In this document: one piece after another, positions 33,509-39,640 of the stretch
Layout of the letters: the number at the start of each line of letters is the position of its first letter
Numbering within the stretch: the stretch's first letter is position 1
DNA from: an uncultured Alphaproteobacteria bacterium
Lineage (GTDB): Bacteria > Pseudomonadota > Alphaproteobacteria > HIMB59 > GCA-002718135
Assembly (NCBI GenBank): GCA_902615625.1
Contig: CACMPM010000006.1
Coordinates: forward strand, 10,173-74,172
Length of the DNA stretch: 64,000 bases
Direction of reading: 5' to 3'
Translations under genes and position numbers: made by a program
The notes under the pieces: generated by a model
The model's input: only the letters and a program-made list of their open reading frames with translations
The model's database searches: none
Told to the model about the DNA's origin: nothing

Positions 33509-34039
33509 TTAATAAGGTATATGGTAAGAAAAACTTAAAATTTCAACTCCTGGATTTTTATCAGCTAAATTAGCATTTGAAATGTGACTAAATGAAATAC
33601 CAATTCTATTTTTATTCTTTAATTCATAGCTTAATTCAAGTGAAGTTCTAAACTGCAGATCGTTTCCTAATTTTTTTCCAGAACCATCATCATAAATACC
33701 TGCTCCAAAACTTGGTGTAAAAAAAAATTTACTTTCATCTCCTTCAAATAATTCACCTAGGTTATCCTCTAAATAAATTCCGGTTAAAAAATAAGATGCG
33801 GAGTCGTTAGTAAATTCAACACCAAAGAAAGGTTTTAAGAAAAAAAAATTATCTTCTTCTGGTCCAATATCTAGTAAAGATTTATCACTTCTATATTCAT
33901 ATCTAAAATCTGTAGCTTGATTTTTTTCAGAACCATCAAATTTTATATCATAAATTCCTAAACCAAAAACATTAGTCCCTTTACTAGCTATAGAATTTGA
34001 GAAAAAAATAATTGATGCTAAGATAAATATTCTGATCAC
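33509..34039 (-). CDS. Small outer-membrane beta-barrel protein, PagL/acyloxyacyl-hydrolase-like
   Basis: 176 aa with a signal peptide and an alternating beta-strand pattern. The SFSHISNA motif (His/Ser spacing as in the lipid A deacylase family) is present, and the C-terminus is aromatic (...HIPY). GTG start. Confidence 0.5.
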   Translation of the reverse strand: MIRIFILASIIFFSNSIASKGTNVFGLGIYDIKFDGSEKNQATDFRYEYRSDKSLLDIGPEEDNFFFLKPFFGVEFTNDSASYFLTGIYLEDNLGELFEGDESKFFFTPSFGAGIYDDGSGKKLGNDLQFRTSLELSYELKNKNRIGISFSHISNANLADKNPGVEILSFSYHIPY

Positions 34040-34070: not shown

Positions 34071-34937
34071 TCAAATAAAAAATTCTTTATTTTGTTGAGA
34101 TATATCTAATATAGCTTTTCTTAATTTATCTAATGCTTTAGTTTCTATTTGCCTTACTCTTTCTTTGCTTATTTTTAATTTTTGTCCTAGCTCATCTAAG
34201 GTTATGCTTTTTTCTCGAAATTTTCTAAGATGAATAATCGTTTTCTCTCTCTCATTTAAAGTATCAATAGCTTTATTGATATAATCTTTTTTTATATTTT
34301 TATCATTAAAATCTTCATATGTTTCTTCAGGGTTTTGACGTTCATCTGCTAGAAGGCTCATGAGATCATTTTCAGTTTCGTTATCAACTTTTTGATTAAG
34401 ATGTAAATCGCCTCCAGTAAGTCTTGACTCCATGTTTTGAACTTCTATAGATTTAACATTGAGCATATTTGATACTTTATTAAGCTCTTCCTGACCCATA
34501 AATTCCCTTGAAACATCATTTATTTGTTGTTTAATCTTTTTAAGATTGAAAAATAAAGCTTTCTGAGAGGCGGTGGAACCAGTTCTTACTACTGACCAGT
34601 TTTTTAAGATATAATCCTGAATTGAAGCTCTAATCCACCATGAGGCATAAGTTGAAAGTCTAAAATCTTTAGAGGTATCAAATTTTTCTAAAGCATGCAT
34701 AATTCCTAAAACACCTTCGTGTATTAAATCATCAATTGGTAATCCGTAACTAGAATATTTTCTTGCATATGAAACAGCTAGCCGTAGATAAGAGTTAAGG
34801 ATTTTTTGAAGTGATTTTGGGGTTTTGTTATCTCTCCAATCATTAATTAAATAAAATTCTTCATCTTTTTCGAGAATAGCTGCTTTCTTTGAAAGCTCTA
34901 TAAGATTATTGGAAAAGAAAAAATTTTTAGCAACCAT
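34071..34937 (-). CDS. rpoH: RNA polymerase sigma-32 (heat-shock sigma factor)
   Basis: 288 aa. It has sigma-70 regions 2-4 and an RpoH-box-like SQKALFFNLKKIK. Confidence 0.9.
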   Translation of the reverse strand: MVAKNFFFSNNLIELSKKAAILEKDEEFYLINDWRDNKTPKSLQKILNSYLRLAVSYARKYSSYGLPIDDLIHEGVLGIMHALEKFDTSKDFRLSTYASWWIRASIQDYILKNWSVVRTGSTASQKALFFNLKKIKQQINDVSREFMGQEELNKVSNMLNVKSIEVQNMESRLTGGDLHLNQKVDNETENDLMSLLADERQNPEETYEDFNDKNIKKDYINKAIDTLNEREKTIIHLRKFREKSITLDELGQKLKISKERVRQIETKALDKLRKAILDISQQNKEFFI

Positions 34938-34968
34938 ACAATATTATACGTAGCATATCTAAATTGGA

Positions 34969-35781
34969 TCATTTATTTTCAAATAAATCTAAAATTTCCC
35001 CATTTTCTGAAAAAATACCGCACAAAACACTATTATTGGACAAAGGTTGTTTGAATAAAGTACAAACAATATCATTTTTTGAAATTTCCTTTTGATTTAA
35101 GTGCTCAGATTCATAACCTCTTACAATTCTTGAAAATGTTTTGTATGGTCTGTCTATTGAAGAAAAATTTTGAAAACCCCACCAAAAACAATCATTTTGT
35201 GCAGATAAAGGTCTAGTTATATCTACACCTCTATTAACAAATAATATTTTTTTTGTATTTGAATAAGCAGCGTGTTTCAAACTTAAAAAGTATTGTGTAT
35301 GGCCTAAATTGTTCTGAAGAGTTTTATTAAGATTTGTCGTCCATTTTGATATATTCATGGTTCCTGATGAGGCTATGCGTCTGACTTCACTCTCAGAAAA
35401 ACCATATGATTTTATTGTTTCATTTACACCGTGATCAAACATCCATTCAATTATCTCAGTCGGGTTGGGAGCAATTTGAAGTTGTAATAATTTACTAAAC
35501 ATTTCTTCTTGCGCTCCTCTTAAAAATACTATGGACTCAGGCTTTAATTTAAACTTTGCCATCAATTTAAATCTTAAATCTATAACGCTACTGAGAGTTT
35601 CTTTCGAGTTATTACCTAGTCCAATAACGTTACCAAGAAAGATTAATTTATCAAATGCTGCAAAATTATTTAATAGGAATTTTTTTATAGAAGTAAAAGA
35701 TTTTAGATTTGAATGAATAGAGCCTATTGCCCATATTTTATTGGTTTTTTTTAATTCTACAAAGTTACTTTTTTTATCCAA
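34969..35781 (-). CDS. Calcineurin-like metallophosphoesterase homolog with all metal-binding motifs substituted (probable pseudo-enzyme)
   Basis: 270 aa. It aligns by eye to the ApaH/PrpE/lambda-phosphatase layout. GDxHG becomes GSIHS, GDxxDRG becomes GNVIGLG, GNHE becomes GAQE and HxG becomes NRG. TTG start 4 nt after the carD stop. Confidence 0.6.
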   Translation of the reverse strand: MDKKSNFVELKKTNKIWAIGSIHSNLKSFTSIKKFLLNNFAAFDKLIFLGNVIGLGNNSKETLSSVIDLRFKLMAKFKLKPESIVFLRGAQEEMFSKLLQLQIAPNPTEIIEWMFDHGVNETIKSYGFSESEVRRIASSGTMNISKWTTNLNKTLQNNLGHTQYFLSLKHAAYSNTKKILFVNRGVDITRPLSAQNDCFWWGFQNFSSIDRPYKTFSRIVRGYESEHLNQKEISKNDIVCTLFKQPLSNNSVLCGIFSENGEILDLFENK

Positions 35782-35785
35782 AATA

Positions 35786-36289
35786 TTATTTGTTAATCAA
35801 AATTTGTTCTATTTTTTCTGTCGTTTGAAAATAATCAGTTTTTTCAACTGCAGCAACTTCTCTTGCTAAACGCTCAATTGCAACTTGAAACATCTGTCTT
35901 TCACTGTAAGATTGTTCAGCTTGACTGCTTTTTCTGAATAAGTCTCTAACTACTTCGGAGATTTTTATAGGATCACCTGAAAAAATCTTTGTTTCATATT
36001 CTTGAGCTCTTCTGCTCCACATAATTCTTCTAATTCTTGGTTTAAGTTTTAATGTAGAATAAACCTCGTCTATAGTTTTTTTTGAGGAAATTTTTCTGAG
36101 ACCAACCTCATCTTTTTTATCAAGAGGTACTCTTATTATAAGTTTAGACTGCTCCATTTTGACAACATAAAAATTCGTTTTGATATTGGTCACTTCCATG
36201 TTTTCTATTTTTATGATTTCACCTACTCCATGTTTAGGGTAAACTACAATCTCACCAATTTTAAATTCAGAACTTTTTTTTGTTTTCAT
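35786..36289 (-). CDS. carD: CarD/CdnL-family transcriptional regulator
   Basis: 167 aa with FKIGEIVVYPKHGVGEI (the RNAP-interacting Tudor-like N-terminus). Confidence 0.9.
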   Translation of the reverse strand: MKTKKSSEFKIGEIVVYPKHGVGEIIKIENMEVTNIKTNFYVVKMEQSKLIIRVPLDKKDEVGLRKISSKKTIDEVYSTLKLKPRIRRIMWSRRAQEYETKIFSGDPIKISEVVRDLFRKSSQAEQSYSERQMFQVAIERLAREVAAVEKTDYFQTTEKIEQILINK

Positions 36290-36622
36290 TTACCTTCCTG
36301 GTTTTTCACTAAAGTGCTTATTAAACTTATCATCAATATTTTGCCACTTTTCTGCATCAACTGGAGGTTCTTTTTTTTCAGAAATATTAGGCCAAATTTC
36401 AGAGTATTTTCTATTAATTTCTGCCCATTTTTCTATACCATCTTCTGTATCTGATAAAATTGCCTCAACAGGACATTCTGGTTCACAAACACCGCAATCT
36501 ATACATTCATCTGGATGTATAACTAGCATATTTTCCCCTTCATAGAAACAATCTACAGGGCAAACTTCTACACAATCCATATGCTTACATTTAATACATT
36601 TTTCATCAACAACGTATGTCAT
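36290..36622 (-). CDS. fdxA: 7Fe ferredoxin (FdxA type)
   Basis: 110 aa with [18 protein letters not shown] and [12 protein letters not shown] cluster motifs. Confidence 0.9.
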
Positions 36623-36623
36623 A

Positions 36624-37070
36624 TTACTTATAATTTTTATCTAGAGCTCTTTTCTTTGCATTTCCAGAGTCTACATCAGAAATGTAAAGTAATCCAGCAA
36701 GTCTTCTTATAAGATTTGATTCAAAATCATGAATCTCTCCATCAGATAATACAATTTCCCATAAAATTTCGATCAAAAGAATTTTCTTTTTATCGTCAAA
36801 ATTTTTATTAATAAAGGAAGTATAATGATGAAGGGATCTAGAATTATTTTTATTTTCCTTTGCTTTTTCAAGAACTAAATCAACTTCTTTTGGATCCTCA
36901 GAAAAAATATTAATTAAACTTAGTTTTATTTTATTTAATTCACTTGCATCGATTTGACCATCTGTATATGCAGCTTCGATCATTAATCCACAAAGTAATT
37001 CTAAATCTTTGTTATTATTATCTTCTTTAGAATTTTGACTATTTAAAATATTTTTTAATAAGTTTAGCAA
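36624..37070 (-). CDS. TerB-like / DjlA N-terminal-domain-like protein
   Basis: 148 aa. Two DG(Q/E)I repeats ([20 protein letters not shown]) match the TerB fold family. TTG start. Confidence 0.55.
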
Positions 37071-37090
37071 TTTATACCTATAATATATAT

Positions 37091-39640
37091 TTAAAGAAGT
37101 TTTTCCAAAACTGCAAAAGGAGAATTAGGGTCTCTCTTAATTTTATCTTTTTTAATTGTTTTGTTTATTTTTTTATTAGGTTTATTGTTTACTACCTGTT
37201 TTCTATACTTTTTTTTATTGGAAAGAAAGAATAGTTTCTTCTCATCAGAAATAGTTACATATTGATATCCACAAAAAATCATTATGTCTTTTAGTTGATT
37301 ACTATTACAGCCTATTGGGTTCATAAGATCAGATGATTCTAAAAATGGACCTTTTTTTAATTTTTGTCTTGCAATAAAAAAAACTTTTTCAAAAACATCT
37401 ATTCTGAATATAAAATTTTTTATATTTATGTAACCAATGGATTGCCAATAATTGTCAGGCATTTTGGTTTCAGATGTAAAAGACACTCTGCCATTTAATG
37501 GTAGCGGTAAAAATTCATCATCACTATTTTGATAATATGTTTTCCATAATATCGCACTAAGCTCTAAAGGTTTTTTCTTTAATAAATTTGGCATGAAAAA
37601 ATACTTTGCACCAATTCTTATACCTAACTTTGAAAGTTGGGTTTTGCTTTCTTGAGAAATTGTCTTTAGGGTATCTTTAAATTTTTCAATTGGGTAATTT
37701 CCAAAATTTTCAAAGCAATTAAATGCAATTGCTCTTACTTCTGAATTTATATTTTCATCTAATTTTTTGCTAAGAGGATGAAGGGTATCATTTATTTCTT
37801 TATCTAGCCATTTCTGAAGTTTTGCAGAAACCAATAATTTATTTTCTGACGATAAATATTCAGAATTTAAAGCATCAGCAATTGGCTTGTATATTGAATT
37901 GCCTTTTTTAAATTTTCCTATCGGCTCATCACCCCAGTAAATAAAAGTATCGTCTTTTATTTTAGAATTACTAATGTCACTAAGATTTATTGATTCAAAA
38001 GGTGAGTTCAAAAAATTTTCTACTTTATCATTAATCATATTTCTTACTGATTTTTTTATATTACTAATCGAAAAAAAAGATTGTGAATATATATTTTTAT
38101 CTTCAATTAGATCAAAACCTTTAATAATTCCATATTTATTCTTGTCTAGAAATATTTCATTGTTATTTTTTACAAAATTATCTTCAATATTTAGAAATTC
38201 TTTTTCTCCAATAAAAATTTTTGAGGAATAATCTATAAATTTATTTGTAAGACTTTTATGTAATTGATCAGATAATTCATTTTCTATTTTCTGTGTTATT
38301 TCTTGCCAATAGTATGTATTTTTAAGCCAGCTGTGATTATTTGAAATATATGTCCAAGTTCTGATTTGGGAAATTTTAATTGAAAGCTCAGGTATACCCC
38401 CTCCAAAGTTGTTAAGCTTACTTATCTTAGTGTTGATCCATTCTTCAGGTATAAGGTAATTATTTTTGATTAAGACTAAATAAATTTCTTTTAATAGTAA
38501 TAAGTAATTATCATTAAATAGTTTTTCAAAATCTGGAATTTGGCAAATATCCCACAGTAACTTTAAATTTTTTTTTGATTTAAGAAATTTTTGAATATCA
38601 TTGTCGTTAATTAAATTACGAAAATTAATTTCATCCAAAGCATTTTTTTTATGAATGAAATAATTATTAATTGGATATTTTTTTAATGAAGATAATAATG
38701 TTTCCGTAGAATTGAAATCTAAATCGCTATTTCTCCAATAAAATTTCTGAATATTATCAAAGTTATGGCTCTCTATTTGTTGAATGATTAATGGATCTAA
38801 ATTACCTGCTTCTTTTGTATGACTAAATGTGCCATCCTGTGTATATCTACCTGCTCTTCCAGCAATTTGACCTAATTCATTAGGAGCTAGATTTCGATTA
38901 TATCTACCATCAAATTTCTCTAGCGAAGAGAAACTCACATGATTAATATTTAAATTTAGACCCATCCCAATGGCATCTGTAGCTACAAGATAATCAACAT
39001 TTTTATTTTCATATACCTCAACTTGTGCATTTCTAGTTCTTGGACTAAGTGATCCTAATACAACCGCAGTACCACCCTTATAAGTTCTTATATTTTCTGC
39101 AATTTCATAAACTTTATTAATATTAAATGCTATTATTGCGGATCTAGGTTCAAGTTTTGAAAAATTCTGTTTCTTTAAAAAAGTAAGTTGAGAAAATCTA
39201 TTTTTTTTTTCAATAATAATATTTGGGTAAATTTTTTTTAGTATATTTTCAACATTCATTGATCCTAAAAAAATGGTTTGAAAGTTACCTTTTGAATTTA
39301 GAATTCTATCTGTAAAAATATGCCCACGTTCATAATCAGCAGCTAATTGAATTTCATCAATAATGACACAATCTACGGGAATATCATTTGGCATTGACTC
39401 AACAGTGCAGAAAAAATATTTGGCTTCTTTGGGTAATATTTTTTCCTCTCCAGTAACTAAAGCTACTTTACTTAGTCCAATTCTTTTTACTGCTTTGTCG
39501 TAATTTTCTCTGGCAAGTAACCTTAAGGGAAAACCAAATATTCCAGAAGAGTAAGAAAGTAATTTTTCAAATGCTGCATAGGTTTTACCTGTATTTGTAG
39601 GCCCAAGTATGGCTAATAGGTTTTCATCTGTATTAGACAT
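37091..39640 (-). CDS. Suv3-like superfamily-2 helicase with a long uncharacterised C-terminal region
   Basis: 849 aa. ILGPTNTGKTY (Walker A, as in SUV3 GPTNSGKTY), IIDEIQ (motif II) and the QIAGRAGR motif define a helicase core of about 330 aa. About 500 further residues have no motif I recognise. Confidence 0.8.
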   Translation of the reverse strand: MSNTDENLLAILGPTNTGKTYAAFEKLLSYSSGIFGFPLRLLARENYDKAVKRIGLSKVALVTGEEKILPKEAKYFFCTVESMPNDIPVDCVIIDEIQLAADYERGHIFTDRILNSKGNFQTIFLGSMNVENILKKIYPNIIIEKKNRFSQLTFLKKQNFSKLEPRSAIIAFNINKVYEIAENIRTYKGGTAVVLGSLSPRTRNAQVEVYENKNVDYLVATDAIGMGLNLNINHVSFSSLEKFDGRYNRNLAPNELGQIAGRAGRYTQDGTFSHTKEAGNLDPLIIQQIESHNFDNIQKFYWRNSDLDFNSTETLLSSLKKYPINNYFIHKKNALDEINFRNLINDNDIQKFLKSKKNLKLLWDICQIPDFEKLFNDNYLLLLKEIYLVLIKNNYLIPEEWINTKISKLNNFGGGIPELSIKISQIRTWTYISNNHSWLKNTYYWQEITQKIENELSDQLHKSLTNKFIDYSSKIFIGEKEFLNIEDNFVKNNNEIFLDKNKYGIIKGFDLIEDKNIYSQSFFSISNIKKSVRNMINDKVENFLNSPFESINLSDISNSKIKDDTFIYWGDEPIGKFKKGNSIYKPIADALNSEYLSSENKLLVSAKLQKWLDKEINDTLHPLSKKLDENINSEVRAIAFNCFENFGNYPIEKFKDTLKTISQESKTQLSKLGIRIGAKYFFMPNLLKKKPLELSAILWKTYYQNSDDEFLPLPLNGRVSFTSETKMPDNYWQSIGYINIKNFIFRIDVFEKVFFIARQKLKKGPFLESSDLMNPIGCNSNQLKDIMIFCGYQYVTISDEKKLFFLSNKKKYRKQVVNNKPNKKINKTIKKDKIKRDPNSPFAVLEKLL

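Follow-up and report, generated by a model that had tools for sequence, protein, structure and literature searches.

The DNA studied here is a 64,000-nucleotide (nt) stretch of contig CACMPM010000006.1 from an uncultured alphaproteobacterium, which we refer to as the window. On its minus strand, at 34969-35781, lies a 270-amino acid open reading frame (ORF), labeled X throughout, that separates carD from rpoH. The original prediction, made from the sequence alone, described X as a protein built on the ApaH/lambda-phosphatase blueprint that has lost its catalytic motifs and is retained as a pseudo-enzyme. Its account of the ORF was accurate: X starts with TTG, the carD stop codon (35786-35788) leaves a gap of 4 nt before this start, and the X stop codon (34969-34971) is separated by 31 nt from the rpoH ATG at 34937. 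The neighbors that it named, a terB-like gene, fdxA, carD, and rpoH, were also recovered by Pfam and, for sigma-32, by NCBIfam model NF005143. The genes of this segment, in the order in which they are read, are as follows.

37091..39640, minus strand: Suv3-type helicase gene, which heads the conserved string (Pfam DEXQc_Suv3 and Helicase_C, matched on the ortholog at locus L163)
36624-37070, minus strand: terB-like gene (Pfam TerB), an upstream member of the conserved string
36290-36622, minus strand: fdxA (Pfam: DUF3470 ferredoxin), an upstream member of the conserved string
35786..36289, minus strand: carD/cdnL (Pfam CarD_TRCF_RID and CarD_C), the conserved upstream neighbor of X
34969..35781, minus strand: gene X, a PPP/ApaH-like putative pseudo-phosphatase of 270 amino acids with a TTG start
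34071..34937, minus strand: rpoH, sigma-32 (NF005143, 272.8 bits against a cutoff of 241)

The single X sequence falls below the detection limits of Pfam and NCBIfam. No Pfam family was matched, the PF00149 gathering score was not reached, and the ApaH equivalog NF001204 gave 13.4 bits against a cutoff of 176 (E = 0.035), over the N-terminal 55 residues only. A phmmer search of the PDB with this sequence returned only chance matches; the top one, ToxR (7nmb, E = 0.03), was gone once profiles were used. A profile made from 27 close SAR11 sequences was too shallow, yielding no PDB match and an AlphaFold2 (AF2) model with a predicted local distance difference test (pLDDT) score of 55. In contrast, a significant relation to known phosphatases emerged with a family profile built from 66 diverse full-length sequences (23-36% identity to X). 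The profile matched the T. brucei ApaH-like phosphatase 2qjc in the PDB (E = 2.4e-7), in register at blocks I, II, IV, and V, as well as Rhizobiales-like phosphatase 2 (RLPH2, E = 3.7e-5) and ApaH (E = 5e-4). When the family alignment was compared by hhalign with sequences taken from annotated records, it aligned to genuine lambda phosphatase across 191 columns (E = 6.6e-5) and to E. coli ApaH (E = 8.6e-5). PF00149 matched only 2 of the 66 members, and weakly (best E = 2.8e-4), and the best NF001204 match among Rhodospirillales members had an E-value of 2.9e-5.

We then considered the predicted structure. An AF2 model based on a 136-sequence alignment was confident, with a pLDDT of 91.1 and a predicted template modeling (TM) score of 0.91, and it showed the alpha/beta sandwich of metallophosphoesterases with the five blocks at strand ends in the expected order. 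Foldseek returned 163 PDB matches below 1e-3, and every one of the 50 best listed was a PPP-family phosphatase or the phosphatase domain of PnkP. The top match was lambda phosphatase (1g5b, E = 6e-9, TM 0.57/0.68), and the Foldseek probability was 1.00 for lambda phosphatase, PP5, PP1, PP2A, PnkP, and RLPH2. In a viral library, phage Ser/Thr phosphatases were matched down to E = 4e-12. Two unnamed phage proteins of about 238 amino acids in BFVD (A0A6G6XWX3 and A0A516LNJ3; TM 0.64-0.73, E = 4e-12 to 7e-11) are structurally nearer to X than any solved structure. Because the profile searches, hhalign, the AF2 model, and the Foldseek matches agree, we regard the homology of X to PPP/ApaH-like metallophosphatases as established by sequence profiles and modeling, and the proposed ApaH/lambda-phosphatase blueprint was borne out. 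On the same comparisons, the nearest active relatives are ApaH, the ApaH-like phosphatases (ALPH), RLPH, and the lambda/PrpA group.

The five motif blocks of this fold can be located in X, each in degenerate form. The registers of motifs I and II came from the 2qjc profile alignment together with the lambda hhalign, and that of motif III was set by the latter, in which VRGNHEQM of lambda phosphatase corresponds to LRGAQEEM of X. The hhalign alignment to lambda phosphatase was unreliable at motif V, where the register was taken from the 2qjc alignment and the strand positions of the model; a strand at residues 218-221 precedes this motif. The blocks and the insert between them are placed as follows.

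35710..35724, minus strand: degenerate motif I, GDxHG replaced by G20-S-I-H-S24, with the metal-ligand Asp gone and the His retained
35614..35634, minus strand: degenerate motif II, GDxxDRG replaced by G50-N-V-I-G-L-G56
35503..35520, minus strand: degenerate motif III, RGNHE replaced by R88-G-A-Q-E-E93, in the register of the lambda hhalign
35272..35502, minus strand: insert of six helices in the AF2 model, residues 94-170, linking motif III to motif IV
35221..35241, minus strand: degenerate motif IV, VHAG replaced by F-V-N183-R-G-V-D187, aligned to AHAGL of 2qjc
35107..35127, minus strand: degenerate motif V, GH replaced by I-V-R221-G-Y223-E-S, aligned to VVFGHD of 2qjc

All of the motifs quoted in the original prediction (G20-S-I-H-S24, G50-N-V-I-G-L-G56, G89-A-Q-E92, and N183-R-G185) are present at these positions. 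Aligned to lambda phosphatase, X carries S21 for D20, H23 for H22, N51 for D49, G54 for D52, L55 for R53, A90 for N75, Q91 for H76, E92 for E77, N183 for H139, and Y223 for the motif V His. The claim that every metal-binding or catalytic motif has been replaced thus stands for the Asp and Asn residues and most of the His residues, but H23 and E92 are retained. Where PPP enzymes have the signature GDxHG, GDxx(D)RG, and GNH(E/D), X has GSIHS, GNVIGLG, and GAQE, and the positions of the dinuclear-metal ligands are occupied by S21, H23, N51, A90, N183, and Y223.

To place these substitutions in the family, residues were counted in the 66 diverse representatives. Asp was found at the motif I position in 0/66 sequences (Ala in 39, Ser in 20), and Asn at the motif III position likewise in 0/66. 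The first Asp of motif II (position 51) is Asn in 53/66 and Asp in 8/66, the second (position 54) is Gly in 63/66, and the position of the motif II Arg holds a variable residue across the family. The motif III His is replaced by Gln in 49/66 and kept in 1/66, and Gln occupies this column in all 136 sequences of the alignment used for modeling. The His residues of motifs I, IV, and V are retained in 31, 28, and 7 of the 66 sequences, respectively, and each of the 27 SAR11-type sequences examined has Asn at the motif IV position. E92 and two glycines of the scaffold, G50 and G89, do not vary. Orthologs therefore do not carry the canonical motifs that X has lost; judged from these alignments, the whole family shares the loss, which is not confined to the window copy. 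With this set of residues the canonical two-metal center cannot be expected to form, and we infer that X is catalytically inactive.

Comparison with the nearest active relatives shows what was kept and what was changed. ApaH, ALPH, and RLPH proteins (2qjc, Arabidopsis RLPH2 5vjv, and E. coli ApaH) gave the best profile matches; they have the fold and the order of the five blocks in common with X, and they also share a block IV-type sequence, HAGLxPxRPxxxQ, and a helical insert between motifs III and IV. Unlike them, X has neither the motif I Asp nor the Asn and His of motif III, and the His of motif V is gone as well; the X family mostly lacks the bridging Asp and has fixed QEEM, FWWG, and VRG sequences. 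In the group of lambda phosphatase and E. coli PrpA/PrpB, lambda phosphatase 1g5b is the best solved-structure match, and its W..NGG sequence aligns by hhalign with W..xHG of the X family; X differs from it by S21, N51, G54, L55, A90, Q91, and N183 at catalytic positions.

We next analyzed how far the family extends. The database holds 1146 homologs of X, the 120 listed being all 270 amino acids long, and an exhaustive hidden Markov model search recovered 443 representatives clustered at 50% identity, with E-values below 1e-30 for 106. Close relatives all come from marine metagenomes, and the cluster closest to X (93% identity) includes an entry labeled "hypothetical protein [Pelagibacteraceae bacterium]"; the window was therefore assigned to a SAR11-type genome. 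Wherever a family member is named, even at the greatest divergence, its source is alphaproteobacterial. A scan of one genome per species, with a 15-member subset alignment as the query, found members in at least 590 genomes; the best 80 loci, which we analyzed further, are from Rhodospirillales sensu lato (Magnetospirillum, Phaeospirillum, Dongia, Inquilinus, Stellaceae, Aliidongia, and others). Three loci (L007, L036, and L066) come from metagenome-assembled genomes labeled Actinomycetota, Sulfotelmatobacter, and Anaerolineae; they retain the fdxA-carD-X order, and their X proteins are 53-72% identical to that of Magnetospirillum fulvum. These labels probably reflect binning contamination. 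Family members of 304-449 amino acids were checked for fused domains, and none were found.

The second data set consisted of 80 marine metagenome contigs carrying X orthologs at 79-90% identity, referred to here as the SAR11 set. An intact ORF of the same length was found in 79/80 orthologs, and a TTG start also in 79/80. The median pairwise ratio of nonsynonymous to synonymous substitution rates (dN/dS, Nei-Gojobori) was 0.09 for X, with values of 0.036 for carD and 0.037 for rpoH from the same contigs as controls. Since dN/dS is this low and nearly all orthologs are intact, X is not decaying. From the non-ATG start and the lack of a single-sequence Pfam match, one might have suspected X of being a pseudogene in decay or an ORF that arose by chance in an AT-rich genome, but the purifying selection, the conserved TTG, the 1146 homologs, the confident fold prediction, and the occurrence in so many genomes refute this explanation, to which we give practically no credence. 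Homology, residue loss, and purifying selection together characterize X as a retained pseudo-enzyme on the sequence evidence, as had been proposed.

Conservation is unevenly distributed along the protein. In the diverse family, the five motif blocks scored 0.54-0.71, with motif III the most conserved block at 0.71, compared with 0.32-0.42 for peripheral helices and termini. The helical insert is also well conserved (K97, W113, G118, Y126, W147, and G160-H161). Replacement residues are fixed at Q91, E92-E93, Q195, D197, W200-W201, and R221-G222, and 31 columns are invariant between SAR11 and Rhodospirillales sequences. Such fixation is not the pattern of an abandoned pocket and indicates, as far as alignments can tell, a new and specific use of this face. 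X would accordingly be read as a descendant of an ApaH/lambda-type metallophosphatase of the PPP family that has kept its fold and, in the five blocks, the scaffold of glycines; because the blocks are the most constrained regions and the replacement residues are fixed, the former active-site face has most likely been reused for binding instead of hydrolysis. A generic nucleic-acid-binding role was considered and is unlikely, because the isoelectric point is not consistently basic across the family (median 6.6), reaching 9.45 only in the Lys-rich SAR11 copy.

The same constraint could be explained if X were still an enzyme with a rebuilt active site, acting as a single-metal or metal-independent hydrolase or transferase through Q91, E92, E93, D197, H161, and H23. 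The strong fixation of the replacement residues, which do not drift, and the location of the most constrained region on the former active-site face would fit such an enzyme, as would the His residues retained at motifs I and IV in part of the family. However, these His residues are not retained family-wide, that of motif IV being Asn in the SAR11-type sequences, and E92 is the only invariant candidate metal ligand. Active metallophosphoesterases are not known to dispense with the Asp of motif I, the bridging Asp of motif II, or the Asn of motif III, and our searches brought up no exception. We therefore consider a rebuilt enzyme unlikely.

We then examined gene order around X. CarD/CdnL regulates transcription initiation globally; in alphaproteobacteria it is believed to work on RNA polymerase by itself. 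None of the 80 SAR11 contigs departs from the order helicase-terB-fdxA-carD-X-rpoH; carD lies upstream of X in all loci that reach upstream, with a gap of 4 nt in 57/63, and rpoH follows X in all loci that reach downstream, with a gap of 31 nt in 47/54. Among the 80 Rhodospirillales loci, carD is directly upstream on the same strand in 77, mostly with gaps of 50-150 nt, and within the flank examined fdxA was found in 67, terB in 38, and the helicase gene in 26. The downstream side is otherwise variable, and rpoH follows X in only 13 of the 80. The proposed sandwich between carD and rpoH therefore holds deeply on the carD side, but on the rpoH side it is found only in SAR11 and in those 13 loci. 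The deep, selected link is the one between carD and X, and the link to rpoH is lineage-specific or only partly retained. In four Magnetospirillum-type loci (L012, L017, L018, and L032), htpG (Hsp90) lies downstream of X on the opposite strand; with rpoH in 13 others, heat-shock genes recur beside X across differing arrangements.

The junctions of X in SAR11 offer hints about its expression. The carD-X junction (35782-35800, minus strand) has no Shine-Dalgarno (SD)-like sequence before the TTG, and its consensus among SAR11 orthologs is AAATAAtAt.TTG. Synonymous variability is lowered to 0.45 in the first 12 codons of X and to 0.65 in the last carD codons, the mean for X being 0.87. These features are consistent with translational coupling of X to carD in SAR11. 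Because the gap is 4 nt, the start is TTG, and no SD-like sequence was seen, X may be translated by termination-reinitiation on the carD message, which would give low expression relative to CarD. On the other side of X, one element stands out in the spacer (34938-34968, minus strand).

34943..34950, minus strand: CGTATAAT box in the X-rpoH spacer, ending 5 nt before the rpoH ATG

In 76 aligned X-rpoH junctions (75 orthologous loci and the window), CGTATA of the CGTATAAT box is at least 90% conserved. The spacer contains no SD-like sequence, and synonymous-site entropy over the last 12 codons of X is 0.41, compared with the gene mean of 0.87. Instead of simple read-through, rpoH may be transcribed from a promoter of its own as a near-leaderless mRNA, or the box may be an AU-rich translation signal. 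The genes from terB to rpoH had been called almost certainly co-transcribed; for rpoH this is not certain, given the conserved -10-like box before its ATG.

Taken together, we favor the view, on which we place about even confidence, that X would assist the CarD/CdnL-RNA polymerase initiation pathway as a non-catalytic accessory, binding through its former active-site face. We favor this role because X has been kept directly after carD in two deeply separated alphaproteobacterial groups. X might bind CdnL itself, or a phosphorylated ligand that informs the CdnL pathway. An arrangement of this kind is known from Myxococcus, in which carD is translationally coupled to the downstream gene carG (PMC8156234, PMC4374960). 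In the metzincin-like motif of CarG, Gln takes the place of the catalytic Glu; the protein lacks protease activity and does not bind DNA, acting on transcription as a cofactor bound to CarD (PMC8156234, PMC4374960). It forms a tight functional complex with CarD (PMC8156234), and the interaction has been mapped (PMC4374960). The likeness of X to M. xanthus CarG would lie in being an inactivated metalloenzyme homolog encoded directly after carD: the SAR11 copies start with TTG after 4 nt, and the distant loci are adjacent with gaps of 50-150 nt. The two proteins differ in that CarG has a metzincin-like fold, 170 amino acids, and bound zinc, is confined to myxobacteria, and binds CarD but not CdnL. 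The CarD-CarG precedent is an analogy of arrangement and not evidence for X.

Several observations weigh against an accessory role at CdnL. CarG is not bound by Myxococcus CdnL, the protein to which alphaproteobacterial CarD is more closely related (PMC4374960), and no partner of this kind is reported in work on CdnL from Caulobacter (PMC5324124, PMC10769358). The polar and acidic residues fixed where the active site used to be could support a new kind of catalysis. Genes can stay next to each other for reasons besides physical interaction of their products, and 18 of 70 Rhodospirillales loci have a terminator-like hairpin, followed by a T-run, in the carD-X gap. These strong GC-rich hairpins include those at loci L009, L011, L012, L013, L018, L032, L044, L052, and L058, among others; each could be a terminator or an attenuator that lowers X expression relative to carD. 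X has stayed intact away from carD in M. fulvum (L001, 2052-4834) and P. tilakii (L002), and X and CarD therefore need not be partners in strict stoichiometry. Both detached copies are arranged head to head with a gene for an ABC-transporter substrate-binding protein.

The hairpins and the intact detached copies would also fit a case in which adjacency to carD is historical, the links to carD and rpoH have no functional meaning, and X serves an unrelated cellular process, perhaps in a scaffold or chaperone-like capacity. Such an origin of the adjacency would agree with the nature of the helicase-terB-fdxA-carD block, a conserved alphaproteobacterial string of functionally unrelated genes. Against it, carD-X is kept in 77/80 loci at only about 30-35% identity between X proteins of the carD-linked lineages, while the downstream side is freely rearranged. 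This one-sided conservation argues for selection on the carD-X pair specifically, and we find a purely historical adjacency improbable.

The accessory role could take a more specific form, which we put forward with low confidence. X might be a dedicated CdnL cofactor whose remodeled face binds CdnL or RNA polymerase, perhaps reading a dinucleoside-polyphosphate or another phosphorylated stress signal, and it might tune open-complex stabilization at sigma-70 and/or sigma-32 promoters. If true, a counterpart of the Myxococcus CarD-CarG pair would have arisen independently and be present in the most abundant marine bacteria. A related explanation, overlapping with the accessory role and not exclusive of it, is that X is a non-catalytic sensor of diadenosine tetraphosphate (Ap4A) or another dinucleoside tetraphosphate (Np4N), of (p)ppGpp, or of polyphosphate, and relays this signal to transcription or the heat-shock response; here the ApaH-derived pocket and a helical cap would bind the ligand without cleaving it. 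Ap4A and ppGpp had been named as possible ligands in the original prediction, which also suggested RpoH or CarD as candidate partners. ApaH and ApaH-like enzymes as nearest active relatives, a helical insert at the position of the ApaH-type cap, the high conservation of the pocket-forming blocks, and the presence of rpoH or htpG next to X in several lineages all speak for a sensor. However, canonical phosphate binding is mostly by the metals and the motif II Arg, both of which are gone in X, and we think that this role is not probable.

An accessory of CdnL would be new to the literature that we searched, which contained nothing on the X family or on a gene between carD and rpoH, no partner of alphaproteobacterial CdnL, and no bacterial PPP-type pseudophosphatase or pseudo-metallophosphoesterase. 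A conserved pseudo-phosphatase behind carD, kept even in a streamlined SAR11 genome, points to an unrecognized component or input of the CdnL pathway, and the X proteins would exemplify a pseudophosphatase family of the PPP type in bacteria. The importance of X would rise considerably if an interaction with CdnL or RNA polymerase, or a specific ligand, were shown. Pseudophosphatases of the PPP type are known from eukaryotes, such as Plasmodium PfPPP8 and the pseudo-PPPs of kinetoplastids, alongside other pseudoenzymes with the metallophosphoesterase fold (PMC10317984, PMC2175518). Like X, these proteins have kept the PPP fold, lost metal-binding and catalytic residues, and have a non-catalytic role (PMC10317984, PMC2175518); unlike X, which is bacterial and has a fixed genomic partner, they are eukaryotic, of independent origin, and have no link to a transcription factor.

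The analysis also corrects database annotation. No Pfam or NCBIfam family covers the X family; its members are named "serine/threonine protein phosphatase 1", after the group of lambda phosphatase and PrpA/PrpB, in IMG and UniRef and hypothetical by NCBI. The transferred phosphatase name is probably wrong, given the residues lost across the family. Just downstream of rpoH, a 176-amino acid ORF lies at 33509-34039 on the minus strand. An NCBIfam search of the window copy gave no match, and the ortholog of this ORF at locus L163 matches PagL (lipid A deacylase, PF09411).

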